Shown: positions 14,237 to 47,034, counted from the stretch's first letter. The stretch: DNA of 64,000 nt from Candidatus Iainarchaeum sp. (GCA_043817715.1 JBDRGO010000007.1:15499-79498), one strand, 5' to 3'. Notes: generated from the sequence alone by a model not told the origin. Numbers and translations are program-made.

Positions 14237-14311
14237 TGGAGATAGGCGGATTTGAACCGCCGACCCTTGGTGTATAAGACCAATGCTCTAGCCAGGCTGA
14301 GCTATACCTCC
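14237..14311 (-). tRNA. tRNA-Ile (anticodon UAU)
   Basis: The reverse complement folds as a canonical cloverleaf: 7-bp acceptor stem, GGCGG-TTCAAAT-CCGCC T-arm, anticodon stem UUGGU/ACCAA with loop CUUAUAC. No encoded CCA. Confidence 0.8.
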
Positions 14312-18179: not shown

Positions 18180-21143
18180 TTAATTTAAATAAATATAGAA
18201 TGCTTCTGAATCCACTTTAAAGAATTCCCCTTGTGAATTGGTTGTTTCCTGAATGAATGAAGGGTGTGAACCTGTTTTTAATTGCTGATAACTTGTTCCT
18301 TGAGTATTAATTAATGCATCATATGCATAATAACTTAAGTTTGAATTAGTGAATGAACCAATTGGCTGACCGTCCTGAGTATCAATATAGTATTTGTTGT
18401 TTTCTTGAATGAAATGCGCTACAAGATAATGTGCAGGATCAGTAAATGAATTTGTAATATCAAAATCTGAATCCTTTGGAGTATAATAAAGCGCGTCAAT
18501 TACTCCGTCTTCAATTCCTGAAGCATTTGGCAGAGAAGTTCCTGAAAAATTAATTGAAGAATTTTTAATGCTTAATGACTGCACTGCAAGCATTAACCAT
18601 AGCCTGTTCAGCATTTTTGCAGGCTTCACTGCATAATATATTGGGTAATCATTTTGCCCCTGCAATCTCAAGCCATACAATGACGGGGTTGCATCAGAAA
18701 TCATGTCCTCTGAAAAAATCATTTTTCCATATGAATTATCAGATGAATCTCCTTTGGTGTTGTAACTCAGTGTTCCTGTTGAATTATTTTTTCTGAATTC
18801 AATTACTCCGTCAACTGAAACCTGCAGTGAATTGCCTGGCTGAATTGAATTCAAAATAAACGGCATTCCATCAGCCAGAAAAGTATTTCCAGCCAAAACT
18901 ATTTGTGTTCCGATTCCTTCAATATTAATTTCTGCTGAATTGAAATCAACTGAATTAATTGTCCATTTTCTTTCATTAATGTAATCCTGATTATTGACTG
19001 TTAAATTATAATCTCTCATGAATGAACTGCTTGAGCCATAATTCACTTTAAACCAGATTGTTTTTGAATCAAATTCAAATGTTGAGCCTTCTTCTGAATC
19101 ATCCAGTTCCAATGCAAAAGGAATTCTGTGAACAATATTCTGGCTGTCTTTGAATTCAATTCCTGAAGAAGTTGAATTGCTTGAATCATAATCTCCTAAT
19201 TTCATTGTAACAGGAATTACCTGAATTGAAACTGTTCCAGTGTTGCTTCCCTGCACGCCGTCCAATGAATGATAAGTGAATGAATCTGTTCCGGCAAATC
19301 CGGCGAAAGGAGTGTATGTTGCAGTGCATGCAGTTAAACCAACATTTCCATGTGCAGGAGGCGATAAAATCAGGCAATTTAAAGCAGTGCCGTCAGGGTC
19401 AAATGTATTCAGGTCAAAAACAAGGTAATTGTTTTCACTTACAGATAAATTCATGTCATATGCAATCGGCACTGCATTTGCCAGAACAGTTAAATCAACC
19501 CTTACTGAATCACTGATATATTGCCCGTCTGAAACTTTGTAAGTGAAATAATCTGTTCCTGAATAATTGTATACAGGATGATAATTTGCAGTGCAGTTAT
19601 TTATTGATAAAGTCCCATGCGAAACAGAAGAATTAACCGAACAGGTTAATGCATCCCCGTCAGCATCAAATACATTCAATGCAAAAGCAATCGGAGTGGC
19701 TTTATTCACTGTAACTGACTGAGGATAACCAACAGGGGAACTGCTGCCCTGACTAACAAGTATTGTTACCTGAACAGGCCCAACAGAATACTGATTGTCA
19801 GATACAGAATAAGTAAAATAATCTGTTCCTGAAAAATTTGCATCAGGAGAATAAGTTGCCCCGCATCCAGTGGCCCAAGTATATGAATCAATGATTAGTG
19901 TTCCATGCTGAGGAGAAGAATTTACTGAACAGTTAACCAAATCATTTTCTGAATCATGCACATCCAAATCAAAAACCAATGCCATGTTTTTGTTTGCCTG
20001 CTTTGATTGAACAGAAGCAGTCGGCGGATTGTTTGCATTCAAAGTAGTGACAGTAATTGTTATTTCTGCTGTATCGCTGTCTGCTTTTCCGTCGCTTGCA
20101 TAATATTCGATTAAATCAGTTCCTGAAAAATTTGCATCAGGAACATAAGTTAAAACACAATTCTGAATTGCTGATGTTCCATGCAATGAATTTCTTTTAA
20201 TAAAACAAGTTAATGCATCATTGTCCGAATCAGATGCATTAAGCGTTAAAGTTCTTGAATTATTAATTGCTGTCGATAAATTCATTGAATTAGCAATTGG
20301 CTTATGGTTCGGAGAAACAACAGCAATTGTTATTGTAGCTAATCCGCTGTTGTTTTTTCCGTCAAATGCATAATAGTTAACGAAGTCAGCCCCAAGATAA
20401 CTTATATTCGGAGTGTAGAAAATTACGCAATTCTGAATTACTGCGGTTCCATGCTCAGGCCCTGAATCAATAAAGCAGTTTAAATCATTGTTTTCAGGAT
20501 CTGAAACAATTAAAGCAATTGTTCTAGTTTGAGCTTTATAAGTAACTGGATCGAAACCTGCGCCATAAATTATTCTGCTGTTTTCAGCAGTAATTGCCTG
20601 ATTTTGGGCTTCAGGCGGGAAATTTATTTCTTCCTGCACTGGCGAAACCAAATTGTTTCCTATTGCATCTGTTCCAAGCAGTCCTGAAAAATTTGTTTTA
20701 ATGAAATCAGTTACTGCAAAATTGTTTCCCATAGGGTTGGAAAGAATAAAGTAAAGCGAAGCCGAGCCAAGAATAAACATAAATCCTAAAAGCAATACTG
20801 AAGCAGATAAAATCAATACAACCTGAATCGGGATTTTCTGGGTGTTTAAAAGCTTTTTTCCTTTTTCAGTCAATTCATAGTATTTCCATTTTCTTCCTTC
20901 ATCAATCTGATGGATTAACTGGCTTTCCTCCAAAAGCTCTAAATGCCTTTTCATGCTTGCAAGAGAAATATTCCTTTTGGCAGCAAGTTCAGTCAAAGTA
21001 TGCCTTCGTTCATATAATGACTTAAGTATTTCAGTTCTTGCCTCTGAAGAAAGCGCCTTGAATTCATCTGAAGAAATAGTTAATTGCTCTTGTTCCATCA
21101 AATCAAATACCCAGTTAGTAATAAATATAAGCATTCCCTTCAA
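18180..21143 (-). CDS. Membrane-anchored winged-helix (ArsR-like) protein with large extracellular Ig-like/cadherin-like repeat domain
   Basis: The N-terminal 100 aa carry a wHTH (RTEILKSLYERRHTLTELAAKRNISLASMKRHLELLEESQLIHQ). A single TM helix follows (VVLILSASVLLLGFMFILGSASL). Downstream, ~95-aa modules recur, each with a conserved DxDxD...C...HGT...YTP...FxGTDxFTY signature typical of Ig-like adhesin repeats. Confidence 0.6.
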   Translation of the reverse strand: MKGMLIFITNWVFDLMEQEQLTISSDEFKALSSEARTEILKSLYERRHTLTELAAKRNISLASMKRHLELLEESQLIHQIDEGRKWKYYELTEKGKKLLNTQKIPIQVVLILSASVLLLGFMFILGSASLYFILSNPMGNNFAVTDFIKTNFSGLLGTDAIGNNLVSPVQEEINFPPEAQNQAITAENSRIIYGAGFDPVTYKAQTRTIALIVSDPENNDLNCFIDSGPEHGTAVIQNCVIFYTPNISYLGADFVNYYAFDGKNNSGLATITIAVVSPNHKPIANSMNLSTAINNSRTLTLNASDSDNDALTCFIKRNSLHGTSAIQNCVLTYVPDANFSGTDLIEYYASDGKADSDTAEITITVTTLNANNPPTASVQSKQANKNMALVFDLDVHDSENDLVNCSVNSSPQHGTLIIDSYTWATGCGATYSPDANFSGTDYFTYSVSDNQYSVGPVQVTILVSQGSSSPVGYPQSVTVNKATPIAFALNVFDADGDALTCSVNSSVSHGTLSINNCTANYHPVYNYSGTDYFTYKVSDGQYISDSVRVDLTVLANAVPIAYDMNLSVSENNYLVFDLNTFDPDGTALNCLILSPPAHGNVGLTACTATYTPFAGFAGTDSFTYHSLDGVQGSNTGTVSIQVIPVTMKLGDYDSSNSTSSGIEFKDSQNIVHRIPFALELDDSEEGSTFEFDSKTIWFKVNYGSSSSFMRDYNLTVNNQDYINERKWTINSVDFNSAEINIEGIGTQIVLAGNTFLADGMPFILNSIQPGNSLQVSVDGVIEFRKNNSTGTLSYNTKGDSSDNSYGKMIFSEDMISDATPSLYGLRLQGQNDYPIYYAVKPAKMLNRLWLMLAVQSLSIKNSSINFSGTSLPNASGIEDGVIDALYYTPKDSDFDITNSFTDPAHYLVAHFIQENNKYYIDTQDGQPIGSFTNSNLSYYAYDALINTQGTSYQQLKTGSHPSFIQETTNSQGEFFKVDSEAFYIYLN

Positions 21144-22828: not shown

Positions 22829-23096
22829 AAGATTTTTTTAACAAAAACCAGGCTAACAAAAAACAAAGGTTTAAAAATAAGGAAAAAAAGCCAGATTTTT
22901 TAAGAAATTTAATTGAAAAGATACTACTTATAAATTGTTTTACGGAAAATAATCCTTTAACAGTAGTAAAAAAATCACTTATTAATTGGGGGAAGGGACT
23001 TTTATGAAAAATAAATTAATGTATGCATCTTTTTTAATTATTTTAATGGTATTGCTTGTTTCGGTTTTTGCAGTAAAAGGAATGGAATCAATTCCT
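22829..23096 (+). repeat. Duplicated 5' region (copy B)
   Basis: See copy A at 21153-21440. Confidence 0.8.
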
Positions 23097-26000
23097 AAAA
23101 TGAAAACTGAAAGCAGGGAGTCATTTGAACAAAGCACTGTAAAAGAATCAAGTGAAAGTAGTGCTTCAACAAAATCAGGAACTTCAAATATTTCTTCTTC
23201 TACCAGTACTAAAACTGAAAAACCTTTAACCCCAAAAAAACCAATTAAAGAACCTGAAGTTAAACCAAAAAATATTACTGAATATCCTTTTGTTTCAAAT
23301 GTAAATATTGAACCTTATTATGCTAACTCCGGACCAACACTTAATGCTACTTGTACTGATTATGATGGAACAATTGCAAATGCTGAATTTAACTTAAATA
23401 ATTTATCATTTAATTATTCAATGAATGCAGTTGATGGTTTATTTGATGAATCAATTGAAGAAGTAATTGCTTCAGTTCCTACTTTTAATGTAAGCCAAGG
23501 AATAAATGATGGAAATGTTTTTTGCATTGACAATGAAGGAAATGAATCACTTCCTAATACAAACTCTGTTTTTGAATTCTTTTATGATACATTTATACCA
23601 TCCAGCATGAGACAATCAATGCCTCCAAATGGATTGAATGAATGGTTTATTTCTGAAGTTGATGTCGAATTGTTATTTGTAGATGTGGCTCCAAGTTCAG
23701 GACGTAAAGGACTTTATTACTGTCTGGACCAAACAAATTCCTGTTCTCCAAATATTGATGAAAACGGAATGGTTTCAATCACTGATGAAGGAATAAATTA
23801 TTTAAGAGTTTATTCTGAAGACAATGCAGGAAACCAATCCAATACTTATCCTGCCATATATAAAATTGATTTAACTAATCCTTATGGACAAGAAATTTAT
23901 TTTACTAGTGCAAACAATTACGGAGATGTAACTGTTTCATTAAATCCAGGAACAGATGATGTTTCTGATGTGAATTACTGTCAATTAAGATGGGAAGAAG
24001 AAATTCCTTGGTTACCTGTTGGATTAGAAACCAGTGCTTCATATAATTATTCTCCTGGAACACATACAGCTTTTTATAAATGCTTTGATGAAGCAGGAAG
24101 AGAAAGCGAAACAGTTTCAGATACAATAATTATTACTGATAATAATCAATTTGATTTATTCATTGATAATGGTTACATTCCTAATCCTCCTCTTTTTGAT
24201 GATGAAAATGTTTTCATTGTAGTCACTCTCCATAATACAGGGGACATAGCTAGATTAGTGCCTAGTGAAACATATCTTGATAATGAACTTCAAGGCACAC
24301 CACATTATCAATGGTATTTTCCATCAGGAACATCAGATCTTTGGATTGGATTTGAACCCCTAGAAGCCGGAGACCATAATTTAACAATAATTACAGACAG
24401 CACTAATGATTATAATGAATCAAATGAAGAAAACAATGTATTCGAATTTATTTTCAATGTAATGGCTCACACACAACCAGAAATTCAATGCGGAGACACA
24501 ATAACAGAAGACACGAATTTGAATAATGATTTATTGAATTGTAATGAACATGGATTAATTATTGGAGCGAATAATATTACTTTAGACTGCCGGGGGCATG
24601 TAATTGACGGAAACAACAGATATATTCAGCATGGAATTTACTTAAACTACAAGAACGGAAACACTGTCAAAAACTGCAATATACAACAATTTAGCTCCGG
24701 AATTTCATTAATCCGAAGTTCAAATAATACTCTTACAAATAACAACCTAAACAATAACGAGTATGGAATCCAAATTCAGAACGCGAGCAATAATACATTA
24801 ACGAATAACAATGCAAACAATAATTATTCTGGAATTCAATTAAGTGACTCAAACAGAAATACATTAACAGACAATAATGCAAACAACAATTATTCCGGAA
24901 TCAGGCTTCAATTTACAAGCAATAACACATTAACGAATAATACCGCAAATGATAATAACAGCATTGGAATTTATTTAAGCTTTTCAGGCAATAATACTTT
25001 AACAAACAATAATGCAAACAACAATTATTCCGGAATTCAACTAAGTGACTCTAACTATAATACCTTCACAAGCAATATTATAAAAAATAACTCTAATTAC
25101 GGAGTGGAATTTTTTGAGTATTATTTCTCCATTTTACCACACAACATTTTTTCAGGCAATTTTTTCATAGACAATTATATTAATGCCCGTGAAGACGTAA
25201 ATCACCTCTTCAACGACTGGAATTCCGGTTTAACCGGAAACTACTGGAGCGACTTCAATAACGATAACCCAGGATATCCAAATTACTATGAAATCCCTGG
25301 ACCAGGAAACGGAATTGATTATCATCCAACAGGACCAACACAAGAAATCCAATGCGGAGATACAATAACAGAAGACACGAATTTGAATAATGAGTTACTG
25401 AATTGTACTGGAAATGGATTAATTATTGATGCAAATAATATTACATTGGATTGTCAAGGACATTTAATTGATGGAGAAGGAAGCAATTACGGAATCACTA
25501 TTAGTAACAAACATGGAATTACCATTCAAAACTGTAACATAAGGGCATTTGATGACGGAATAAGATTATATTCCAGCAACAACAATTTCATTCATAATAA
25601 CAATATTATAAACACAAACATAGCAATAGATGTTTACTCATCCAGTACAAACACAATTTCCAACAATACCATTCCAAACAACCTTGACGGAATATACCTT
25701 CGCTACTCCAGCAACAACAATCTTGTATCAAACAATACAATTGTAAACAACCAGCAAGGATTATATTTGCTTGAAAACTCAAAATATAATACTTTTTGGA
25801 ATAACACATTGCTTAACAATATTATAAATGCATCTGAAGCCCATAGTTCAGCAAGCCCTAACGACTGGAATTCAGGAACTGTTGGAAACTACTGGAGTGA
25901 TTTTAACACAAACCCAGGATATCCTAATTACTATGAAATCACTGGACCAGGACAAGGAATTGATTGGCATCCAACAGGACCAACACAAGAAATCCAATGC

Positions 26001-28295
26001 GGAACAACAATAATGCAGGACACAAATTTAACAAACGATTTACTGGATTGCAATGGAAACGGATTAATTATTGGCGCAAATAATATTACGCTGGATTGCC
26101 AAGGGCATTTAATCGATGGAAATTGGAATGATTATGGAAAGTTCGGAATTTATCTTGAAGGAAAGCAAAATATTAATATAAAGAACTGCAATATACAAAA
26201 ATTTTATCGTGGAATTTATTTATTCCTATCCAACAATAATGTTTTGAATGGCAATAATATCAGTAACACCACTGAGGGAATTAAACTATTTTCAAGCTTT
26301 TACAATATTATAACCAAAAATGTTATAAGCAATAATAATTCTGACGGCGTTAGCTTAGATTATAGCTCAGATAATGAGATAATTAGCAATACCATCAGTA
26401 ACAACGATAATGAAGGCATTAGATTATTTTCCAGTTCCGGAACGGAAATTGTTAGCAACAACATAAATTATAATGACAACGGAATCGGGTTATATCACGG
26501 GTCAACTAATAGATTAATAGACAATAGTATAAGCAATAATAACAATGATGGACTTGGGTTGCATTTTGATTCTATTCATAATAATCTAAGTGGCAATGTA
26601 ATAAACGGTAATGGATATGGCGCGTCCTTAACTTTTGATTCTCGATACAACACTTTCTGGGACAACAACTTCTTGAATAACGGAACCAATGCCTATGAAG
26701 ATTCAAATTCCAATTTCAACGACTGGAATTTAGGAACAACCGGAAATTACTGGAGTGATTTCAACTCAAATCCAGGATATCCAAATTATTACGAAATTTC
26801 CGGACCAGGAAACGGAATAGACTGGCATCCGTTAAATGAAATACCTCCTGAATGCGTTGCTCCAACAGACGGAATGAGCATAACTGAAGACACTGTTTTT
26901 TGTTCGGGAACATATGTTTTGCCTAACGGGATTTCAATTGATGCGGACAATGTTACTTTGGATTGCGACGGGGCGGAATTGGATGGAAACACACTAGTGC
27001 CTCCTCCTAACGAACCTGGATTTGGGATAGAAATACGCGATAAAAGCAATATTGTTATAAATAATTGTAAAATTAAACACTATCCTATTGGACTATTTGC
27101 AAAATTTTCGCAGTCTATACTAAAGAATAGCGAGATAGAAAACAATTCAACAGGGGCATTACTCGGAGGTAACGAAAACGAAGTAATATCCAACTATTTT
27201 AATGAGAATAAAAAAAGTATAGTCATCAAGGACTCTCTAAGAACTAGATTGCAATACAATGAGATAATACCAACTAATTCAAATTATCTTCCTGAAGCAT
27301 TAGAAGTGTGGGGAAGCAATAAGGAAGAATACCAACAAGTTATAGATGAAACAAATTTTATTAATGGAAAACCAATTTTATATTATGATGATATAAACAA
27401 ATTGTGTCCAAATAATCAAACGTTTTCAGATTTAAATAATTATAGCCATATCTCCTTTGTGGGGTGTAATAATATCACAATTGAAGACAACAATTTATAT
27501 GAAAATGATGGAATTTTCCTTTATTACTCAGACGATTTCAATATCTTAAATAATTCAATGGACAAAATACAAATTCTAGTTGAGAAATCAAATAATATTA
27601 ATATATCCAATAATGAAGGGAATAAAACAATCATTGAATTTTTTAAATCAAATAACAACAACATTACCCAAAATTATTTAAATGAAGGGCGTCTCGAGTT
27701 AATGGAGTCTAATAGTAATTACATTTACCTAAACAGCCTAAATGGTGCTAATCAAATAGTGCCAGAAATAGGGTTTTTCATCAATGATTCGAATGACAAC
27801 CAGATCGAAGAAAATAATATTTTCAATTACTACAGAGGAATGTATATTGGCGCTCCTGGAAATAATAACTTTCTTCAGCACAACAATTTTTTCAACAACA
27901 GTTTGTTCAATATCTATTATCAGGGGGAATTTGAAGACATCAACACAGCAAACAACTACTGGGGCACCACCAGCATGCTGGGAATTGCCCAGAAAATTTA
28001 TGATTACTGGGATGATCCATTCAGTGGAATAGGTGAAGTGAATTACTGTCCTTATTTGAATGCACCTGACGGCACTCCAATTGAATGCATTCCATGTGAA
28101 AATGCAGATATTGATGAATCAAATTATGTTAATTCAATGGATTTCGCTTTATGGAGAATTAATAACGGAAGCAGTGACTGTAATGCATCAAATAATTACT
28201 GCAACAGGGCAGACATTGACAGGGACTCTTATGTGAATACAACTGATTTCACTTATTGGAGATTTTATAATGGAAGAACCTGTACAGATGAATAA
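23004..28295 (+). CDS. Giant secreted multi-module beta-helix protein with C-terminal dockerin-like domain
   Basis: Start placed at MKNKLMYASFLIILMVLLVSVFA (paralogous signal peptide, RBS GGGGGAAGGG). At least three NosD-like beta-helix modules follow. Each opens with EIQCGDTITEDTNLNNDLLNC...NITLDCQGH.IDG and ends with NDWNSGTxGNYWSDFNxNPGYPNYYEIxGPGxGIDWHP. The C-terminus carries two ADIDxxxYVNxxDFxxWR repeats. Confidence 0.7.
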   Translation: MKNKLMYASFLIILMVLLVSVFAVKGMESIPKMKTESRESFEQSTVKESSESSASTKSGTSNISSSTSTKTEKPLTPKKPIKEPEVKPKNITEYPFVSNVNIEPYYANSGPTLNATCTDYDGTIANAEFNLNNLSFNYSMNAVDGLFDESIEEVIASVPTFNVSQGINDGNVFCIDNEGNESLPNTNSVFEFFYDTFIPSSMRQSMPPNGLNEWFISEVDVELLFVDVAPSSGRKGLYYCLDQTNSCSPNIDENGMVSITDEGINYLRVYSEDNAGNQSNTYPAIYKIDLTNPYGQEIYFTSANNYGDVTVSLNPGTDDVSDVNYCQLRWEEEIPWLPVGLETSASYNYSPGTHTAFYKCFDEAGRESETVSDTIIITDNNQFDLFIDNGYIPNPPLFDDENVFIVVTLHNTGDIARLVPSETYLDNELQGTPHYQWYFPSGTSDLWIGFEPLEAGDHNLTIITDSTNDYNESNEENNVFEFIFNVMAHTQPEIQCGDTITEDTNLNNDLLNCNEHGLIIGANNITLDCRGHVIDGNNRYIQHGIYLNYKNGNTVKNCNIQQFSSGISLIRSSNNTLTNNNLNNNEYGIQIQNASNNTLTNNNANNNYSGIQLSDSNRNTLTDNNANNNYSGIRLQFTSNNTLTNNTANDNNSIGIYLSFSGNNTLTNNNANNNYSGIQLSDSNYNTFTSNIIKNNSNYGVEFFEYYFSILPHNIFSGNFFIDNYINAREDVNHLFNDWNSGLTGNYWSDFNNDNPGYPNYYEIPGPGNGIDYHPTGPTQEIQCGDTITEDTNLNNELLNCTGNGLIIDANNITLDCQGHLIDGEGSNYGITISNKHGITIQNCNIRAFDDGIRLYSSNNNFIHNNNIINTNIAIDVYSSSTNTISNNTIPNNLDGIYLRYSSNNNLVSNNTIVNNQQGLYLLENSKYNTFWNNTLLNNIINASEAHSSASPNDWNSGTVGNYWSDFNTNPGYPNYYEITGPGQGIDWHPTGPTQEIQCGTTIMQDTNLTNDLLDCNGNGLIIGANNITLDCQGHLIDGNWNDYGKFGIYLEGKQNINIKNCNIQKFYRGIYLFLSNNNVLNGNNISNTTEGIKLFSSFYNIITKNVISNNNSDGVSLDYSSDNEIISNTISNNDNEGIRLFSSSGTEIVSNNINYNDNGIGLYHGSTNRLIDNSISNNNNDGLGLHFDSIHNNLSGNVINGNGYGASLTFDSRYNTFWDNNFLNNGTNAYEDSNSNFNDWNLGTTGNYWSDFNSNPGYPNYYEISGPGNGIDWHPLNEIPPECVAPTDGMSITEDTVFCSGTYVLPNGISIDADNVTLDCDGAELDGNTLVPPPNEPGFGIEIRDKSNIVINNCKIKHYPIGLFAKFSQSILKNSEIENNSTGALLGGNENEVISNYFNENKKSIVIKDSLRTRLQYNEIIPTNSNYLPEALEVWGSNKEEYQQVIDETNFINGKPILYYDDINKLCPNNQTFSDLNNYSHISFVGCNNITIEDNNLYENDGIFLYYSDDFNILNNSMDKIQILVEKSNNINISNNEGNKTIIEFFKSNNNNITQNYLNEGRLELMESNSNYIYLNSLNGANQIVPEIGFFINDSNDNQIEENNIFNYYRGMYIGAPGNNNFLQHNNFFNNSLFNIYYQGEFEDINTANNYWGTTSMLGIAQKIYDYWDDPFSGIGEVNYCPYLNAPDGTPIECIPCENADIDESNYVNSMDFALWRINNGSSDCNASNNYCNRADIDRDSYVNTTDFTYWRFYNGRTCTDE
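24475..26110 (+). repeat. Intragenic tandem module repeats (three copies, periods about 870 and 640 bp)
   Basis: Module starts at about 24475, 25348 and 25988 share a 130-bp stretch at more than 80% identity (CAATGCGGAGACACAATAACAGAAGACACGAATTTGAATAATGA...). A fourth copy in the paralog at about 21470. Confidence 0.6.
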
Positions 28296-28457
28296 AGCAC
28301 AAAAGAACAGGCAGTAAAACACAACAAAAGGAACATGCAGTTAAAACACAACAAAAGAGAATGCAATTAATTGCAGTCCTTTGCTTTTGAATTAACTAAA
28401 AGCAATTCCTTTTTATTTTTCTTGTTTATATTCTTTTTAATTAACTAAAGTGGTTTT

Positions 28458-29994: not shown

Positions 29995-30231
29995 ATGTTT
30001 GAATGTGAGGCAAAATTAAAAACATGGGGCAACAGCATTGGCGTTGTGCTTCCTAAAAAAGAGCTTGAAAAGGAAAATCTTTCTGCTGACAGCAAAGTCA
30101 GAGTGGTTGTTTTTCCTGCAAAAAAGCTTACTGTAGGGGATATTTTTGGAAAGCTTGAAAACTGGAAAAAGCCAGCCAGCAGAATAATGAAAGAAATTGA
30201 CGAGGAATTGGACAGCAAATTCTTTAAGTGA
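29995..30231 (+). CDS. AbrB/MazE-family antitoxin (SpoVT_AbrB fold)
   Basis: 78 aa; KTWGNSIGVVLPKK swapped-hairpin motif. Confidence 0.7.
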   Translation: MFECEAKLKTWGNSIGVVLPKKELEKENLSADSKVRVVVFPAKKLTVGDIFGKLENWKKPASRIMKEIDEELDSKFFK

Positions 30232-30235
30232 TAAA

Positions 30236-30598
30236 ATGAAATATTTTTTCGATACTTATGCGTTAGTCGAAATTGTTGAAAAAAACCCGAATTATGTAAA
30301 ATTCATAAAAGAAGAAATTGTTACAGGCATTCTTAACATTGGAGAATTTTATTATTCGCTCCTGAAAGATTACGATGAAAGCACTGCGCAAAACTGGCTG
30401 AAGATTTTTGGGCAGACAATAATTCCTTTAAGCACAGACACAGCCATCAATGCAATGAAATTCAAATTCCTAAACAGGAAAAAAAACTTTTCTTTTGTTG
30501 ACTGCTGCAGTTACATGCAAGCAAAAGAAAACAACTTGATTTTCTTAACCGGCGACAAGGAATTCAAAGGAATGCCTAATGTGGAATTCGTGAAATGA
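30236..30598 (+). CDS. vapC: PIN-domain toxin (VapC-like)
   Basis: Start at MKYFFDTYALVEIV 4 nt after the antitoxin stop. The leading D of the PIN acidic set is in that motif; the conserved C-terminal acidic residue lies in LTGDKEF. Confidence 0.75.
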   Translation: MKYFFDTYALVEIVEKNPNYVKFIKEEIVTGILNIGEFYYSLLKDYDESTAQNWLKIFGQTIIPLSTDTAINAMKFKFLNRKKNFSFVDCCSYMQAKENNLIFLTGDKEFKGMPNVEFVK

Positions 30599-30657
30599 GA
30601 AAAAGAATTCAGATATGCCTATGCAAAGAAATTTAAATATAATTATATCTAATTATA

Positions 30658-30927
30658 TTGGTGATTTTTTTGGAAGCTGAAGTTGTTGTAAGAAAATGGG
30701 GCAATTCTCTTGGGTTGACTTTGCCTAAAAATCTTGTTGAAACCCAGAAAATAAGGGAAAATGACCGCATATCCATTCAGGTGGAGAAAAATAAGCTGTT
30801 AAGAGTAGGTGACATTTTCGGGCTTGCGAAAGGCTGGAAATTTGACACTCAAAAATTCAAAGACCAGGCAAGGAGGGAGGAACTTGAACGGGAAAGAAAA
30901 ATTTCTGGATTCTTACGCAATCATTGA
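30658..30927 (+). CDS. AbrB/MazE-family antitoxin, second copy
   Basis: 89 aa; RKWGNSLGLTLPKN; paralog of 29995-30231. Confidence 0.7.
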   Translation: MVIFLEAEVVVRKWGNSLGLTLPKNLVETQKIRENDRISIQVEKNKLLRVGDIFGLAKGWKFDTQKFKDQARREELERERKISGFLRNH

Positions 30928-31255
30928 AATAATCAAGGAAAACCAGAATTACAAACCATTTAAGGAAGCAGTTGCAGTAACAGGCAAAGCCAACTTGATT
31001 GAAGTCGCGTACAGTCTGCTTCAGGATTTCCAAAAAGAAACCGCATTAATTATATTGGGTTCCCTGAAAATCAAAACCCTTGAAATAGAGGACAACCAGA
31101 TAACAAAAATCGCTGTTTTCAAAAAAGAACACGCCAAAAAAAAATTCTCTTACATTGACTGCATAGGTTATATCCTGGCAAAAGAAAACGGAATAGCTTT
31201 CGTCACAGGCGACAAGGAATTTGAAGGAATGCCTAATGTGGAATTCGTGAAATGA
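30884..31255 (+). CDS. vapC: PIN-domain toxin (VapC-like), second copy
   Basis: Paralog of 30236-30598; the last 45 nt are identical. No in-frame ATG at the homologous position. Proposed TTG start at 30884 sits 5 nt after a GGAGGGAGG RBS and overlaps the antitoxin. Confidence 0.6.
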   Translation: MNGKEKFLDSYAIIEIIKENQNYKPFKEAVAVTGKANLIEVAYSLLQDFQKETALIILGSLKIKTLEIEDNQITKIAVFKKEHAKKKFSYIDCIGYILAKENGIAFVTGDKEFEGMPNVEFVK

Positions 31256-36171: not shown

Positions 36172-36414
36172 ATGCCTAATATTACTTTATCAGCAACTGA
36201 TGAAATGAAGGAAAGAATGGGTCGGCATCCTGAAGTGCGTTGGTCTAATGCAGTTCGCATAATTATTGAAAAGAAATTAAATGATTTTGAAAAGGCCGAA
36301 CGTTTAGCTAATAAAATCAATCTTTCAGAGAAAGATGTTGAATTTATTTCAGATAAAGTTGAGAAGGACATGGCTAAACATGCAAAGGAGCTTTTGAATG
36401 AGGGTTACAGTTGA
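36172..36414 (+). CDS. Ribbon-helix-helix (CopG-like) putative antitoxin
   Basis: 80 aa; N-terminal ITLSATDEMKERMGRHPEVRWSNAVRIII beta-strand-helix pattern of RHH; 17-nt overlap with downstream PIN gene. Confidence 0.55.
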   Translation: MPNITLSATDEMKERMGRHPEVRWSNAVRIIIEKKLNDFEKAERLANKINLSEKDVEFISDKVEKDMAKHAKELLNEGYS

Positions 36415-36808
36415 TGCAAATATTCTTTTTTCTGCTTTGATTAAAAAAGGACAAACAAGAAAAGTTTGGTTTAATCCGGAAATTGAATTATGTGCTCCAG
36501 AATTTCTTTTAAAAGAATTCTTAAAATACAGGGAATATCTTCAGAAAAAAGCCTCTGGAACTCCTAAAGAATTCCAGGATATTTCAGAAACTCTTTTTTC
36601 ACAGGTTTTTTTTATTCCCGATTCAGAACTAAAACCATTTTTGCCTGCCGCCGCTTTTCTTTCAAATGATGCAAAAGACTGGCTTTATCTGGCTTGTGCT
36701 TTAAAAGAAGACACAATTATTTGGAGCAATGACAAAGAATTCAAGAAACAGAAAAGAATTAAAATAAAATCGACTAAGGAAATGATTGAAGAAACAGGGA
36801 TGCTGTGA
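36398..36808 (+). CDS. PIN-family putative toxin (TIGR00305-like)
   Basis: MRVTVDANILFSALIKKGQTRKVW N-terminus matches the TIGR00305 PIN toxin signature (vvlDtNvlisall). Confidence 0.6.
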   Translation: MRVTVDANILFSALIKKGQTRKVWFNPEIELCAPEFLLKEFLKYREYLQKKASGTPKEFQDISETLFSQVFFIPDSELKPFLPAAAFLSNDAKDWLYLACALKEDTIIWSNDKEFKKQKRIKIKSTKEMIEETGML

Positions 36809-37162: not shown

Positions 37163-37369
37163 TCACTTCTTTTTTTTAATTTCATCTAAAAGCCCTAATT
37201 TTTCAATAGACAAACGCTCTAATTCCTTAGTTTCCTCAAAAGTAAGTCCATTATCTCTTTTAAAAACCGCTTTTCTTATCTTGATTCTTTTCCTATCAAT
37301 TAATTTTATTTTAATTTTATTTACAACGCGTTTAATAAAATGAAATTTTAAAGGCATTTTTCTCATCAA
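37163..37369 (-). CDS. Hypothetical small basic protein
   Basis: 68 aa, K/R-rich. Confidence 0.25.
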   Translation of the reverse strand: MMRKMPLKFHFIKRVVNKIKIKLIDRKRIKIRKAVFKRDNGLTFEETKELERLSIEKLGLLDEIKKKK

Positions 37370-37776
37370 ACAATATTTAACTGTATTTTTTTGCTTACAT
37401 CAAACCCCATTGGAATATCCAATGAGGCTTCAATGAACCATTTAACTGTTGAAGTTTTTCCGCCTAAATTTAATGACAACAGGCCCAAATCAATCTTTGC
37501 CCCGGTATTAATCGGAGTGTATTGCGGAATTCCGATTTCAAATTCATATTCTTTTGTCCGGTAATCTTTTTCTCCTTCTTCAAGCATTATTTTTATTTCA
37601 TTAACCCTTCTAATTGAAGTTTTTCCGCCTTTACTTGAATAAGAAGTTGTTTCTTCTTCTCCGTAAAAAACAGCCCTTACTCCGCGTGCCTTGGTTGCTT
37701 CCTTTAAATCCAGAAAAGCCTTTCCCTTAATTGTTTCCCCGAACTTAAAATTCGTTTTATCAAGGATTAATTTCAT
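37366..37776 (-). CDS. Hypothetical protein
   Basis: 136 aa, beta-rich; 4-nt overlap with downstream gene. Confidence 0.3.
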   Translation of the reverse strand: MKLILDKTNFKFGETIKGKAFLDLKEATKARGVRAVFYGEEETTSYSSKGGKTSIRRVNEIKIMLEEGEKDYRTKEYEFEIGIPQYTPINTGAKIDLGLLSLNLGGKTSTVKWFIEASLDIPMGFDVSKKIQLNIV

Positions 37777-43080: not shown

Positions 43081-46000
43081 CTAATTAGGATAAATTATTG
43101 GTCTTTTTTTAAAGTATTCAGTAATAGCAGTTTGCAACTCTCTTTCAGTTAACTGAATTGGCACATATTTGGTTCGCATAGAAGCCAAAATCAACTCAGC
43201 AAACTCTTTCATAATTTTTTCGTCCTGTATAAAAAGACCTTTACTATAAGCTTTTTTTACAAATTCTGAAGAAAAAGAAGAAACCCTTACATTCCCATAA
43301 ACCCAAAATGAAATTATTTCAGTCATTAATGTATCTGCATCAATCATTTTTCCGTTTATTTCAACAATTTTGCCTTCACTCATTAAAGGCGGCATAAACT
43401 TTGATGGATTAGCTTGGTATAAATCTAGCTTTGTGAAAGAATAAGTAAAATAATCCTTTTCATAACCTGTTTGAAATTTTTTAAGATATTTAATTAAACT
43501 TCTGTTTTTTGAAAACAAATTAATTAATTCAGCCCTTTCAGAAGTGCTTAAAGCAAACCAACGAATATGGCTTAATTCATGTGCTGAAATATTAATGCTA
43601 TTTGACACTAAATCTTTTCCAGATCTAAACAAAGATAGCTTATTCCAAGAAAAAGCTGAATCCAAAGAAATTGCAATGCTATCAAAACGACCTCCTTTAA
43701 TGCTTTGGAAAGTAAAACCGCCAATAGAAGGTTTAGATCTGCAAACATAAAAATAAATCTTGCCTGCAAAAGGATCATTTAACTCTGAAGTCAAAACAGG
43801 CACTAATCCTTCACTACTTAGTCCTCTGAAAACATTTTGTTTGCCACTCCTAGCCATACTCTGTTTCCAAAAAGAACCCAGTCTTTGCAGTTGATCAGGA
43901 AGAATTGCCGGCAAAGTTCTACGTAAACTCAAAGAGCCAGGAAATTTCAAATACAATTTCTTTGAACCAAACACAACCCCTTCTTCTTTCAGGATTTGAA
44001 TGCTTTCTGACAAAAATAAAGTTTCAACTTCATCAATTGAACAGGCTTCTAAAGTACTTCCTTTACAAACCACTCCCTTTGTTTCATTAATTACTGCTTT
44101 CTGGAATTGCAGTTCTTTAATCAGGATTGCTGCTTCTTCTGGTGATTCTTTTGAAACAAATTCAATCAAATCCTCCAATGAATCAAGTGTTTTACTTATT
44201 TTTGAAAGTTGTTTTGGAGTAACTGAATTCAAATTAATCAAAAAAGCGTCATCTAATTCATTAAATGAATAAATCAAATATTTTTCAGAACCGGCAACCA
44301 CTGCATCTTTTTCAACTCCTCCGACAACAATTTTTTTTGCTGTAGATTCAGCAAAATCAGTTAAAATTTCTTTTGGTACACGAGAATAAGTTTTGCTTAA
44401 ATTCCTTAAAGCAGATATTTCATACCTGAACCAGTTTGTTAAAAGATCTTTTCTTGCTTCAGACAAAGCAACCCTAAAATTAAAAACTGAAGAAGGAGTA
44501 ATTTTTGTATAAATAACTGTGGCAGTATTAGGAAAACGCTTGAATAACACTGCCTTAAATGCATTTTTTTTATCAATTGAAAGCTTAATTAATCTTCCAG
44601 TTCCCCTTAAACTAAATTCAATAAAAGGATGTTTTTCAAGAAATCTTCCAATATTTGAAAGAGCTCTTACTGAAGCTTGCGCGTATTTGCCTGAAACAAA
44701 TTCAGCTAACCTGGTTCCCAAAGAAGTTTTAATAGCACTTTTTCCGACAACTCCTACAAGAGAAAACACTCCTCTAAAAGCAAATTCTCCAATAAACCAA
44801 TACCTTACATCAAAAAATGCTTCCCATCTATGAGAACTTAATTCAACAAATTCAAGAACATGAAGCTCTGATTTAACCTTAAGAGATAAACTTGAAACTT
44901 CAGGTAAAATAATTTCATTTTCTTCATTAAATAATTCAATTTTTTTCTCTAACTCTAAAAGCTTTGCTTTTGCAACCGGGTAAACCGATTCAGAAATATA
45001 ATCCTTGGCTTCAGCGAAATCCAATTCAATTAATTCCAATTCATTTGGAGCTCGATTATGTTCATTAATTATTTCCTGAATAGAATTAAATTTCTTTAAA
45101 GTAGAATTATCAGCAGTTTTATTATTTTGAACAATAGAAGAACTTTGCAAAAAATACCTTGCTGAACCAATATAACCTTTTTCTTCAATATCTTCTTCAG
45201 TTATATCTCCTTGATTCAACAAATTTTCTAAATCATCATCCAATAAATGAACCAATATATTAAATTGCCTTTGCTGTTCATGAATAATTTCTTCTCTATT
45301 CAAAATTTCAGTTACTTCTTCCTGGTTTTCCTCTTCACGAATAATCCATTTAAGCCCATAATAGCCATTATAAAAAAGCTTTGCAAAACTAGTTCTGTCA
45401 TCCAACTGCTCATCCAATTCACCTAAAGCTCCTTTAAATAATTCATTTTCTGTTTGAATTTCTTTTTTCGCAACCTCTAACAAAATCTGATTCAAATGCA
45501 TCCTCTTATTAATTTCATTGAATTGATTAATTTCTTCTTCAGAATCAAATAAATTTGAAATTAAAAAAAGTTTTTCATTAAAAGCATACTCTGCCTCAAT
45601 AAAAGAATCAATATTCTTCCAAGAATATCGGTTCTCTAAATAATCATATCTTGTTTTCAAAAAATTGTATTTCAATTCAAATAAATCATTCATTTCACCT
45701 TCTTCACCAAAAATATTTTCCAAATCCATGAATTCACTTAAATGCATTTCCTTTAATTTCTCTGATTCCAATAATTCTTCTTCCTGAAATCTCTCGGCAA
45801 TCTTTTTATTTTCCTCTAATTTTTTCGGCAAAGTTTCCCTTGGAGAAACAAACGCCAAAGAAATTAATCCACTTGCTTCAAACAAATCAATATGCTTAAG
45901 CCTTGAATCAAAAACCAAATCAAACTTATTTAAAAAATCAAGAACAACAAATTCATCTAATTCATTTAATTCAGTAATCAAATCCAAAGTTCTTTTCTTT

Positions 46001-47034
46001 TCCCTGTGCAATTCAGAGTATACCATGTTTGCTTCACAAGAATCAAAATAAAACGAATCAAGAAAATGAATTCTATTAAAAGAAGGCATTAAATTCTTAG
46101 AACGCAATTCACCAAAATTAGAATTAAAATAATTCAAATACTGCCTGCAATTCCCTTTTGAATTAATCTGAATTTCATCGCTTAAAAGCAGCCAAACATA
46201 AGAATCAACACCAGAATTATGCTCAATAAAAGCATTTTTGTTCTCCAAAGATTTTTCAAGCAAATCCAAATACTTTTCATTCAAATCCTCTAATCTATCC
46301 AACCTGCAGTAAAGCAATGCATTGCTGAATTCCTTTTCAGTTAAGTCCTCTCTTCCATAACTTAACTCAATTTCTTTTAAACAAAAATCATTATGAATTA
46401 CAACCTCAATTCCGTCAGAAATCAAATCATCAATCATTTTCCCCTCTTCATTAATCAACCGAATATCAGCCAAACGCAGGTTAAGGGAATACTCTTCATT
46501 CAATAATTCATCAGAATAATCAGAAATATCAACACTAAAAGTAATTGTCGGCTGAACAAAAGAACTATTTGGATTAAATTCAGGATTATTAGGGTCATTA
46601 AAACCACCACTAAAATCCTCAACACTAAAAGAAACAAAATTCTTTCCAACACCATCCAAAACAAGTCGTTCATGAATTGAATAAGAAGGCAACCACTTAC
46701 TCAAAGGCAAAGTGAAAATAACTTCATCTTCAACGCTTTCATTTGAAACAAATAAATCAATCCTTTCAGGCAAATCAGGATACAAATTAATTGAAGCAAA
46801 ATCAGATTCAGTAATAGGGTCATCTTCAGCCAACCCAACTAAATCAAAAACCCCTCCAACAATGCCTTCAATAAATTCAGCTCCTTCCTTTAAAGGCAAA
46901 CCAAAAGGATCCTCAGGAGCTGCAAAAACAGAAATAAACAAAAAACAAAAGAAAAAAAACAAAAAAAACTTTTTATACATGAAAAATAAAAGAAAAAGGA
47001 AAATAAATACTTTACTAAAAGCATTTATTTCCAA
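43081..47034 (-). CDS. Giant (1317 aa) secreted or membrane-associated hypothetical protein
   Basis: N-terminal, strongly hydrophobic F/L-rich signal or anchor (FIFLFLLFFMYKKFFLFFFFCFLFISVFAAP); remainder acidic and helical with no recognised domain. Confidence 0.5.
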   Translation of the reverse strand: MEINAFSKVFIFLFLLFFMYKKFFLFFFFCFLFISVFAAPEDPFGLPLKEGAEFIEGIVGGVFDLVGLAEDDPITESDFASINLYPDLPERIDLFVSNESVEDEVIFTLPLSKWLPSYSIHERLVLDGVGKNFVSFSVEDFSGGFNDPNNPEFNPNSSFVQPTITFSVDISDYSDELLNEEYSLNLRLADIRLINEEGKMIDDLISDGIEVVIHNDFCLKEIELSYGREDLTEKEFSNALLYCRLDRLEDLNEKYLDLLEKSLENKNAFIEHNSGVDSYVWLLLSDEIQINSKGNCRQYLNYFNSNFGELRSKNLMPSFNRIHFLDSFYFDSCEANMVYSELHREKKRTLDLITELNELDEFVVLDFLNKFDLVFDSRLKHIDLFEASGLISLAFVSPRETLPKKLEENKKIAERFQEEELLESEKLKEMHLSEFMDLENIFGEEGEMNDLFELKYNFLKTRYDYLENRYSWKNIDSFIEAEYAFNEKLFLISNLFDSEEEINQFNEINKRMHLNQILLEVAKKEIQTENELFKGALGELDEQLDDRTSFAKLFYNGYYGLKWIIREEENQEEVTEILNREEIIHEQQRQFNILVHLLDDDLENLLNQGDITEEDIEEKGYIGSARYFLQSSSIVQNNKTADNSTLKKFNSIQEIINEHNRAPNELELIELDFAEAKDYISESVYPVAKAKLLELEKKIELFNEENEIILPEVSSLSLKVKSELHVLEFVELSSHRWEAFFDVRYWFIGEFAFRGVFSLVGVVGKSAIKTSLGTRLAEFVSGKYAQASVRALSNIGRFLEKHPFIEFSLRGTGRLIKLSIDKKNAFKAVLFKRFPNTATVIYTKITPSSVFNFRVALSEARKDLLTNWFRYEISALRNLSKTYSRVPKEILTDFAESTAKKIVVGGVEKDAVVAGSEKYLIYSFNELDDAFLINLNSVTPKQLSKISKTLDSLEDLIEFVSKESPEEAAILIKELQFQKAVINETKGVVCKGSTLEACSIDEVETLFLSESIQILKEEGVVFGSKKLYLKFPGSLSLRRTLPAILPDQLQRLGSFWKQSMARSGKQNVFRGLSSEGLVPVLTSELNDPFAGKIYFYVCRSKPSIGGFTFQSIKGGRFDSIAISLDSAFSWNKLSLFRSGKDLVSNSINISAHELSHIRWFALSTSERAELINLFSKNRSLIKYLKKFQTGYEKDYFTYSFTKLDLYQANPSKFMPPLMSEGKIVEINGKMIDADTLMTEIISFWVYGNVRVSSFSSEFVKKAYSKGLFIQDEKIMKEFAELILASMRTKYVPIQLTERELQTAITEYFKKRPIIYPN

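Follow-up and report, generated by a model that had tools for sequence, protein, structure and literature searches.

Dockerins are small calcium-binding modules through which a protein usually attaches to a partner cohesin domain. Archaeal examples of both domains have been on record since 1999, and ANME archaea have them in abundance (PMC9012536 and references therein); the rarity in archaea claimed in a preliminary description of the locus studied here was overstated. According to PMC9012536, these domains are widespread among organisms that are not regarded as cellulose degraders, finding one does not by itself tell its function, and the archaea that carried them in a 2009 survey were without scaffoldins. 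Dockerin-cohesin binding has been demonstrated in archaea (PMC9012536, citing Haimovitz 2008), including Archaeoglobus fulgidus (PMC9012536), and the dockerin modules of A. fulgidus and ANME archaea have been proposed to serve in assembling the surface or in interactions between cells (PMC9012536, citing Bayer 1999, Peer 2009, and Haimovitz 2008). Giant 'Dockerin-type' proteins of Omnitrophota carry dockerin repeats (bioRxiv 10.1101/2023.11.21.568195), SEML1_0315 is an essential dockerin-domain protein of a Saccharibacterium (PMC10633639), and attachment to the host or to host glycans has been proposed for these proteins (bioRxiv 10.1101/2023.11.21.568195; PMC10633639). In the ScaA dockerin of Ruminococcus flavefaciens, according to PMC3821032, contact between the N and C termini, termed an intramolecular clasp, stabilizes the fold. 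Little is known of the means by which DPANN archaea attach to surfaces or hosts, and most of their large surface proteins bear only generic fold annotations; recognizing a docking module at the end of such a protein provides a concrete, testable handle.

The stretch of DNA analyzed here, called the window, comprises 64,000 nucleotides from Candidatus Iainarchaeum sp. (GCA_043817715.1, JBDRGO010000007.1:15499-79498); positions are counted from its first nucleotide, and all features described lie on the + strand. One gene (23004..28295, stop codon included), within an enclosing ORF at 22986..28295, encodes a 1,763-aa multi-beta-helix protein with a C-terminal dockerin, whose residues we number from the ATG at 23004. 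Its product is identical, including the start, to NCBI MFH1587848.1, which is named 'MAG: NosD domain-containing protein [Candidatus Diapherotrites archaeon]'. Residues 1694 to 1763 form a dockerin-fold module with two tandem F-hand calcium sites and a short helix between them. The module sits at the extreme C terminus of an exported Diapherotrites (DPANN) protein whose body consists of four NosD/CASH-type right-handed beta-helices.

The giant protein matches the Pfam families NosD (1.2e-98) and Beta_helix (3.8e-71). A hydrophobic N-terminal segment read off the translation (MKNKLMYASFLIILMVLLVSVFAVKG, 23004..23081) is a putative signal peptide or signal anchor, followed by a Ser/Thr/Lys/Pro-rich linker to about 23290, and from these features the protein is predicted to be secreted or N-terminally anchored. 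Three paralogous right-handed beta-helix units, delimited by motif positions, identities, and NosD, Beta_helix, and para_beta_helix repeats, span 24480..26837 (unit 1, 24480-25343; unit 2, 25344-25988; unit 3, 25989-26837). They share 44-51% pairwise identity, and each begins with EIQCG...ITLDC and ends with GNYWSDFN...YPNYYEI...HP. A fourth, divergent unit together with a Cys-containing linker (26838..28085) has 28-31% identity to units 1-3 and is closed by the cap motif NNYWGTTSMLGIAQKIYDYWDD (27951-28016). The cap motif and the linker after it (27951-28085; query residues 1-45) match dozens of giant beta-helix proteins. The C-terminal tail contains no hydrophobic segment, and a C-terminal sorting signal was rejected for the module on that ground. 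Neighboring surface genes in the window encode Ig/cadherin-like, CARDB, and VWA proteins, which are adhesin-like.

Both peptides quoted in the preliminary description exist and are read in frame in the last part of the ORF: repeat 1 (ADIDESNYVNSMDFALWR) covers residues 1701-1718 (28104-28157) and repeat 2 (ADIDRDSYVNTTDFTYWR) residues 1736-1753 (28209-28262). The quoted strings are 18 aa long rather than 22, and the gap between them is 17 residues rather than about 20, with the repeat starts 35 residues apart. The feature had also been started too far upstream, at 28020; 28020-28085 holds the cap that closes the last beta-helix, followed by the linker, and the module begins at about 28083-28095. 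From first to last conserved cysteine (C1698 to C1760) it occupies 28095..28283, and the span that was modeled (E1694-E1763) 28083-28292. The ungapped self-alignment of the repeats extends over 25 residues, 14 of them identical, with a BLOSUM62 score of 84, which none of 2000 shuffles attained (mean 21.4, sd 4.5, z = 13.8). Because of this z score and the empty tail of the shuffles, the duplication is far beyond chance despite the Asn/Asp-rich composition. The pattern D-x-[DN]-x-[DNS]...[VIL]-x-x-x-D has no other occurrence in the six frames of the window, and the family HMM found one copy there and no further dockerin module.

Each repeat contains a predicted 12-residue calcium loop, assigned from the sequence and the family columns. 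Loop 1 (D-I-D-E-S-N-Y-V-N-S-M-D, D1702-D1713, 28107..28142) presents D, D, S, N, and D at ligand positions 1, 3, 5, 9, and 12, and loop 2 (D-I-D-R-D-S-Y-V-N-T-T-D, D1737-D1748, 28212..28247) presents D, D, D, N, and D. Every ligand position in both loops is D, N, or S, giving the tandem loop-plus-helix arrangement of a dockerin, with oxygen ligands at 1, 3, 5, 9, and 12 and Asp at 12. The Asp/Asn calcium-binding positions, whose conservation had been proposed as a check, are all kept. Across 160 modules, the loop 1 columns are D1 (157/160), N/D3 (140/160), D/N/S5 (159/160), G6 (133/160), V/I8 (156/160), and D12 (157/160), and those of loop 2 include D44 in all 160 and D55 in 154. The window copy deviates at position 6, usually G (loop 2, 112/160), where loop 1 has N and loop 2 has S. 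The loop 2 ligand N1745 lies within an N-T-T sequon and could be glycosylated.

Taken as a single sequence, the module stays under the Dockerin_1 (PF00404) gathering score of 22.9 bits: a 131-aa C-terminal query scored 18.9 bits (E = 0.0017) and a 70-aa module query 20.8 bits (E = 4.6e-4), and a Pfam scan of the full-length protein reported no Dockerin_1 match. Dockerin_1 was the sole Pfam family matched by the module (profile positions 2-50 of 57), no EF-hand Pfam model being among its matches. With phmmer against the PDB, the top matches were dockerins (8x39, 1.4e-4; 5nrm, 0.01), and their alignments cover both repeats at the same spacing. Word-indexed homologue searches gave no match for the C-terminal 131 aa and one weak match, P0001, for the last 433 aa; against GTDB species-representative contigs, the latter query found nothing beyond a weak match to a beta-helix cap in a WOR-3 bacterium. 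An exhaustive phmmer search over 1.84 billion representatives returned 160 matches at E<=1e-3. Among the 150 matches listed, plus P0001, which was added from a separate homologue search, at least 76 metagenomic proteins carry 1-8 copies of the module.

At the family level the HMM support that was missing at the single-sequence threshold is clear. A family HMM built with the window sequence left out scored the window module at 65-74 bits, compared with at most 12.4 bits among 5000 shuffles. With the family profile, solved dockerins come up at 5e-9 to 1e-5, over both repeats at 5e-9, and calmodulins only at about 1e-3; two non-dockerin calcium-binding proteins fall inside the dockerin range (6kth, 5.7e-6; 2jnx, 3.7e-5). 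Dockerin_1 is matched by 52/54 modules at E<=0.01 and by 37/54 at E<=1e-4 (best 7.7e-14), as well as by 60 of the 74 full-length family proteins (best 5.8e-70), and EF-hand_1 is also matched by 17 of the 54 modules. Homology to bona fide dockerins is reached at the profile level through these intermediate sequences. A TSP3 repeat (TSP_3, TSP3_bac) was rejected, being absent from all 12 families matched by the 54 modules at E<=0.01; neither model is among the 25 most frequent families in the 74 full proteins.

The AF2 model made with the family alignment (54 sequences) reached a pLDDT of 96.5 and a pTM of 0.84, compared with a pLDDT of 38 for the single sequence. It superimposes on 2y3n_B at 1.1 Å over 60 columns (TM 0.70/0.81), and the best 15 Foldseek matches in the PDB are all dockerins, so a three-helix dockerin fold is predicted. 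DSSP on the model places helix 1 at model residues 18-27 (28134..28163) and its pseudo-symmetric counterpart, helix 3, at model residues 53-62 (28239..28268). Between them lies the linker D-C-x3-N-x-Y-C (C1726...C1733) with the short helix 2 (model residues 35-41) at 28179..28205, and the bridge residues of the model fall at positions 15, 31, 50, and 66. Helix 1 is the predicted first partner-contacting helix, the contact role of the helices being taken from solved cohesin-dockerin complexes. The Dockerin_1 match, the PDB dockerins, the family profile, and the modeled fold together uphold the original reading of a dockerin-type duplicated calcium-binding (F-hand) pair; judged by its sequence and predicted structure, the module is a real but divergent dockerin. 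It adds a previously unannotated member to a known domain family and falls within a subgroup of that family that carries cysteines.

Members of this subgroup have four conserved cysteines, with C-x3 ahead of each loop and G-x2-3-C behind each helix, and a linker signature D-C-x3-N-x-[WY]-C (C33 in 133/160, N37 in 88/160, W/Y/F39 in 131/160, C40 in 112/160). The commonest cysteine pattern is CCCC (80/160 modules), and the central pair occurs alone in 15 modules from at least seven proteins. Another 25 modules, mostly from three proteins, show the pattern 'CC--', which fits an alternative, intra-repeat pairing. From cysteine co-occurrence and symmetry, rather than from model coordinates, we infer that the four cysteines probably form two disulfide staples. 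Solved dockerins aligned to the module or to the family profile have no cysteine at the aligned positions, and the searchable literature on dockerins with DPANN lineages or with disulfides yielded no description of a four-cysteine subgroup.

The relatives vary in architecture. The order of beta-helix, NYWG...DYxDD cap, and dockerin recurs in P0001, P0012, and P0137, and a metagenome scan with a 7-sequence family alignment, which gave five loci, included a subtilase with the module at its C terminus (L006). Some relatives are secreted proteins of about 90 aa that consist of a signal peptide and one module, and others are arrays of 5-8 modules with a transmembrane anchor at the end, whose copy number differs between near-identical loci (seven modules in L002 and L003, five in L004). 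Since many relatives are thus dockerin-only, whether single or in arrays, they do not fit the classical scheme of cargo dockerin and scaffoldin. That the partner is not encoded in the window agrees with our scan, which found no Cohesin (PF00963) match in any of its 52 ORFs of at least 90 aa. Ten ORFs from two related loci likewise contained no cohesin, and PDB sequence searches with a Pfam-less 816-aa surface protein and with the first 406 aa of the giant protein returned no cohesin-like match. Among the 74 family proteins, no more than one can match Cohesin, because the 25 most frequent families do not include it and, of these, those from rank 14 downward have one member each. The window gave no CAZyme or CBM family match and no scaffoldin, and it has a single dockerin.

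The reading that we favor, by a modest degree of confidence, is a disulfide-locked dockerin module with a cohesin-type partner encoded elsewhere, serving to tether the beta-helix protein to a surface. The docking role is suggested because exported cargo with a C-terminal dockerin recurs in P0001, P0012, P0137, and L006. Binding of two Ca2+ ions through positions 1, 3, 5, 9, and 12 of each 12-residue loop would fold the module, a C1726-C1733 disulfide would close the C-x6-C linker beside site 2, and a C1698-C1760 disulfide would clasp the N and C termini beside site 1. The two near-symmetric helices could then insert into the cohesin-type beta-sandwich of the partner, and a large, glycan-binding, adhesin-like protein would be tethered or cross-linked at a cell surface, which may be the envelope of the archaeon itself or the surface of a neighboring (host) cell. 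The role would be protein docking and not a sign of cellulose degradation. A serious though lesser candidate is an orphan dockerin-fold module that has no cohesin and acts as a calcium- and disulfide-stabilized envelope spacer or as a binder of the S-layer, of glycans, or of itself. The cohesin searches of the window, the family proteins, and the related loci agree with it, as do the anchored arrays of variable copy number, the small relatives with a signal peptide and a single module, and the statements in PMC9012536 that a dockerin by itself leaves function undefined and that scaffoldins were missing from the archaea of the 2009 survey. The fold and exposed helix pair, however, are those of cohesin-binding dockerins, a terminal place on enzyme or adhesin-like cargo is the classical docking arrangement, the cohesin search covered 64 kb of one 81-kb contig, and divergent cohesins may evade PF00963.

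We regard the remaining readings as unlikely to differing degrees. Under one that we consider speculative, DPANN and other microbes that are small-celled or uncultivated would possess, in their four-cysteine dockerins, a separate adhesion system locked by disulfides. Module arrays would be membrane-anchored while single copies cap long beta-helix stalks such as the 1,763-aa protein, the partner would be a cohesin-like or other receptor of the host cell and not a self-encoded scaffoldin, and the module would be the physical contact point of archaeal episymbiosis; we doubt that all of these parts hold jointly. The cohesin partner and "cellulosome-like" assembly that the preliminary description took a dockerin to imply would follow by inference from the domain, and we think it quite improbable that the protein belongs to a polysaccharide-degrading multi-enzyme complex. 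Its dockerin is C-terminal, as in cellulosomal enzymes, and its cargo is four NosD/Beta_helix (CASH-type) domains, whose fold is also found in pectate lyases and other enzymes that act on glycans. Neither the protein nor the window matched a glycoside hydrolase, lyase, or CBM, however, no scaffoldin or cohesin lies in the window, the neighboring genes are adhesin-like, and non-cellulosomal dockerins are widespread (PMC9012536). The calmodulin matches of the family profile and the EF-hand_1 matches of some modules might point to a generic EF-hand calcium sensor or buffer pair, which we judge very improbable: most dockerin matches are much better, the setting is extracellular and C-terminal, and both loops have Asp and not Glu at position 12. 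That position is Asp in dockerins and typically Glu in EF-hands. A chance resemblance can draw on a protein with 17.4% Asn and 6.4% Asp and on an AT-rich genome (32.8% G+C in the window), and we give it almost no credence, as the repeat score, the leave-one-out HMM score, and the uniqueness of the motif in six frames all stand against it; a composition artefact was rejected by the shuffle controls.

Current understanding is not overturned by these results, as non-cellulosomal dockerins are already documented in archaea and ultrasmall bacteria. What the analysis delimits is a cysteine-bearing dockerin subgroup that single-sequence Pfam thresholds partly miss. If they are real, the disulfide staples may interest engineers of cohesin-dockerin pairs as stable protein connectors.

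The bacterial cellulosomal dockerins compared were Cel48 of Bacteroides cellulosolvens (2y3n_B), CelS (2mte/1daq) and Xyn10B (1ohz) of Clostridium thermocellum, and 2vn5 of C. cellulolyticum. Like them, the window module has about 60-70 residues, two 12-residue D-x-[DN]-x-[DNS]-x-x-[VI]-[ND]-x-x-D loops with a helix after each, equivalent repeat spacing, Asp at loop position 12, and a C-terminal place on an exported cargo protein. Unlike them, its family has four conserved cysteines, the window copy has N/S and not G at loop position 6 and lies below the Pfam gathering cut-off, and it occurs in a DPANN host, on cargo without a recognizable CAZyme and in a window where no cohesin was found. Like the dockerins of A. 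fulgidus and ANME-1/-2, it is carried by an archaeal extracellular protein that has no connection with cellulose degradation; the cohesins of those archaea, in contrast, share the genome or even the protein, whereas none was found in the window, the lineage here is Diapherotrites, and the passages of PMC9012536 on archaeal dockerins do not mention a four-cysteine signature. The known clasp of the ScaA dockerin is non-covalent, whereas the bond predicted between C1698 and C1760 would provide its covalent counterpart. The Omnitrophota and Saccharibacterium proteins, compared by architecture only, differ in being bacterial and in their thrombospondin type 3 and discoidin repeats and SecA-like domains. 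What they have in common with the protein described here is dockerin repeats on proteins that are very large or associated with the envelope, in host-associated organisms with small cells.

Residues of the giant protein encoded at 23004..28295 (+) are numbered here from the ATG at 23004, because the resulting 1,763-aa product is identical to MFH1587848.1, a protein deposited on an 81,410-bp contig whose NCBI annotation includes no dockerin. Its hydrophobic N-terminus, a signal peptide or signal anchor, is followed by a Ser/Thr/Lys/Pro-rich linker and then by about 400 residues that gave no confident family match. The protein contains three paralogous right-handed beta-helix units with 44-51% mutual identity and a fourth, divergent unit (NosD, 1.2e-98; Beta_helix, 3.8e-71). 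A beta-helix cap, NNYWGTTSMLGIAQKIYDYWDD (27951-28022, +; motif NNYWGT..I..KI.DYWDD), lies just upstream of the dockerin-like region, and behind it come a short Cys-containing linker and the 70-residue C-terminal module, with no C-terminal membrane anchor. The cap motif is a widespread repeat (also in P0004, P0006, P0008 and others), with up to 13 matches per giant metagenomic protein of 3,000-4,600 aa, and a cap followed by a dockerin is also found in P0001, P0012, and P0137.

The preliminary description had placed two dockerin-like segments of 22 residues at this C-terminus. Both peptides are encoded in the reading frame of ORF 22986..28295 (+), at its end, but translation shows that each is 18 residues long: ADIDESNYVNSMDFALWR at residues 1701-1718 (28104-28157, +) and ADIDRDSYVNTTDFTYWR at residues 1736-1753 (28209-28262, +), with starts 35 residues apart and 17 residues intervening. 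The two halves give an ungapped 25-residue alignment with a BLOSUM62 score of 84, a value reached by none of 2000 shuffles (mean 21.4, sd 4.5; z = 13.8), so the duplication is not a by-product of the 17% Asn content of the protein. Across the six frames of the window, the loop-type pattern and, separately, the family HMM each found a single module copy. The oxygen ligands at loop positions 1, 3, 5, 9, and 12 are D, D, S, N, and D in loop 1 and D, D, D, N, and D in loop 2, both with the Asp at position 12 that is seen in dockerins. Loops 1 and 2 have N and S, respectively, at position 6; relatives have G there in 133 of 160 first loops and 112 of 160 second loops, and S or N is found in other family members too, such as P0120. 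In loop 2, the position-9 residue N1745 lies inside an N-T-T sequon.

Taken alone, the C-terminus has Dockerin_1 (PF00404) as its sole Pfam match, covering profile positions 2-50 of 57 and scoring 18.9 bits with a 131-aa query and 20.8 bits with a 70-aa query, where the curated cut-off is 22.9 bits. Dockerins also rank first when the sequence is compared by phmmer with all PDB sequences (the Clostridium thermocellum double dockerin 8x39, 1.4e-4; Acetivibrio cellulolyticus DocCel5 5nrm, 0.01), and both repeats align with equal spacing. By itself, this single-sequence evidence is suggestive, not conclusive. A word-indexed homologue search with the C-terminal 131 aa returned no match. An exhaustive phmmer search with the translation of 27951-28292 against 1.84 billion cluster representatives matched 160 proteins at E<=1e-3, which fell into two classes: many giant beta-helix proteins aligned with query residues 1-45 (the cap), and others with residues 44-113 (the module). 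Iterated HMM searches of the best 150 of these 160 matches plus P0001 identified at least 76 proteins with one to eight module copies, and the family consensus is C-x-G-A-D-I-N-x-D-G-x-V-D-x-x-D...G-x-x-D-C-x3-N-x-W-C-x-x-A-D-I-N-x-D-G-x-V-x3-D...G-x3-C.

The window module scored 65-74 bits against a family HMM built without the window sequence, compared with 12.4 for the best of 5000 shuffles. Dockerin_1, the profile first proposed as a check, fails for the single sequence at its cut-off and succeeds for the family, with 52 of 54 representative modules matching at E<=0.01, 37 at E<=1e-4 (approximately the gathering score, by interpolation), and the best at 7.7e-14; among full-length family proteins, 60 of 74 match (best 5.8e-70). 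The family profile aligns across both repeats with solved dockerins (2y3n_B, 2mte, 4fl4_A, 8x39, 1daq, 3ul4_B, and others) at 5e-9 to 1e-5 and reaches calmodulins at only about 1e-3; two non-dockerin calcium-binding proteins, 6kth and 2jnx, score inside the dockerin range. A generic EF-hand and a chance resemblance are both effectively excluded. This chain of leave-one-out HMM, Dockerin_1 matches, and profile comparison settles the matter in favor of the dockerin originally suggested, and we hold the assignment with high confidence; among the testable features that define dockerins, the module lacks only a score above the single-sequence Pfam threshold.

Structure prediction points to the same fold. 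AlphaFold2 gave a pLDDT of 38 from the single sequence and, with the 54-sequence family alignment, 96.5 (pTM 0.84). The second model has three helices (model residues 18-27, 35-41, and 53-62). The best 15 Foldseek matches of this model in the PDB are all dockerins, and it superimposes on 2y3n_B at 1.1 Å across 60 columns (TM 0.70/0.81). The predicted dockerin fold is not circular, since the alignment consisted of relatives found from the window sequence and contained no canonical dockerins.

Compared with the solved dockerins in the PDB alignments, the family is distinguished by four conserved cysteines, which in the window module are C1698, C1726, C1733, and C1760. All four occur in 80 of 160 modules; the central pair alone (D-C-x3-N-x-W-C) is kept in 15 modules from at least seven proteins, and the first two alone in 25, most of which come from three proteins with additional cysteines elsewhere. 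Dockerins are pseudo-two-fold symmetric, each loop adjoining the tail of the opposite repeat, and the isolated bridge residues of the AlphaFold2 model are positions 15, 31, 50, and 66. This symmetry and the bridge positions suggest, with moderate strength, that one disulfide (C1726-C1733) lies next to site 2 and that a second (C1698-C1760) clasps the termini next to site 1.

Consistent with the earlier statement that a partner is not encoded in the window, Pfam found no Cohesin in any of its 52 non-overlapping ORFs of at least 90 aa. PDB sequence relatives were found neither for the first 406 residues of the giant protein nor for the 816-aa surface protein without Pfam match at 49704-52154 (+); the latter carries three acidic repeats, each about 95 aa long, ends in a transmembrane anchor, and is the first member of a 49-59 kb cluster with VWA and Ig/CARDB-like proteins. 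In the 74 module-bearing proteins, the module stands beside Beta_helix/NosD (three proteins), BspA-type LRR, MopE, PEGA, subtilase/I9, and other families, and at most one of the 74 matched Cohesin. A seven-sequence family alignment retrieved five related metagenomic loci, three of which encode membrane-anchored proteins made almost wholly of tandem four-cysteine dockerins: a 690-aa form with seven modules (L002:8774-10846; L003:994-3066) and a 540-aa form with five (L004:9224-10846). The ORFs flanking these arrays agree in order and size, which indicates copy-number variation and suggests that module number varies between close strains; P0005, from an 'archaeon' MAG, clusters with the 540-aa form at 90%. 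In L006 the module sits at the C-terminus of a subtilase, and no cohesin was found among 10 ORFs scanned from L002 and L006, including eight that flank the L002 array.

We lean, with modest confidence, toward a dockerin that folds with Ca2+ and is probably locked by disulfides, and through whose two similar helices the giant beta-helix protein would plug into a cohesin-type receptor encoded elsewhere. Cleavage of the signal peptide would place this receptor on the envelope of the archaeon itself; a protein that keeps its N-terminal anchor and carries the dockerin at the far end would meet the receptor on another cell. The dockerin-only arrays, the stand-alone forms of about 90 aa, and the complete lack of cohesin matches in the sequences scanned all favor the main rival, an orphan module without a cohesin partner, serving as a Ca2+-stabilized structural unit or binding something else, which we regard as possible though doubtful. 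That four-cysteine modules are a host-contact device of DPANN episymbionts is unlikely, and a true cellulosome-like degradative complex, to which just the CASH-type fold of the cargo points, is more improbable yet.

The host is a DPANN archaeon, and archaeal markers in the window (tRNA-splicing endonuclease, Cpn60/TCP-1 chaperonin, and TrmB) fit this. Near the giant gene are a 431-aa beta-helix and CARDB protein and a 987-aa surface-type ORF (18180-21143, -), with VWA and Ig-like surface-protein genes farther away. By Pfam, the 987-aa ORF joins an N-terminal winged helix-turn-helix (HTH_45/HVO_A0261_N) to five Big_9 and several cadherin-like domains, an odd union of DNA-binding and extracellular-type Ig domains; the ORF may encode a regulator that spans the membrane, or may be over-extended from a TTG start. 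Directly past the giant gene's stop, 28299-28370 (+) contains a direct repeat of about 20 nt (ACAAAAGAACAGGCAGTAAA-like) in three copies with 26-nt spacing; within it the exact 16-mer TAAAACACAACAAAAG recurs at 27 nt, and a 10-nt palindrome lies downstream. Within 7 kb downstream are three PIN-domain ORFs (two PIN, one PIN_2; 30197-31255, +, and 36398-36808, +), probably toxin-antitoxin remnants.

Elsewhere in the window, the sole tRNA is a tRNA-Ile with anticodon TAT (UAU; 14237-14311, -), which would decode AUA directly; in most archaea a CAU tRNA with an agmatidine modification serves instead, and tRNA-Ile of the UAU kind is characteristic of a few reduced genomes. The S-adenosylmethionine synthetase at 47040-48269 (-) is of the bacterial/eukaryotic three-domain type (S-AdoMet_synt N/M/C, E to 3e-68) and may be horizontally acquired, since archaea usually have a distinct archaeal type. 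A 1,317-aa protein without Pfam match (43081-47034, -) has a hydrophobic N-terminus and a Glu/Leu-rich, coiled-coil-like middle. Two matches are unexpected in an archaeon: a 380-aa protein (5775-6917, +) matches Sigma70_r4 at its C-terminus (3.9e-7), and a 136-aa arrestin-like ORF (37366-37776, -) matches Arrestin_N (1.4e-6).

Some papers that name both dockerins and DPANN discuss dockerins of CPR bacteria rather than of DPANN archaea, and others are, by title, bacterial or community surveys. No cysteine-bearing bacterial-type dockerin was found described in the searchable literature, an absence that is no proof of novelty, and the four-cysteine subgroup may merit description. A stabilizing N-to-C "clasp" of non-covalent type is known in dockerins (PMC3821032). 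Dockerins are borne by giant envelope proteins of the ultrasmall Omnitrophota (bioRxiv 10.1101/2023.11.21.568195) and by an essential envelope protein of Saccharibacteria (PMC10633639). The window dockerin is thus new and currently unannotated, but the dockerin family is already known, and non-cellulosomal archaeal dockerins and cohesins are established in A. fulgidus and abundant in ANME (PMC9012536).
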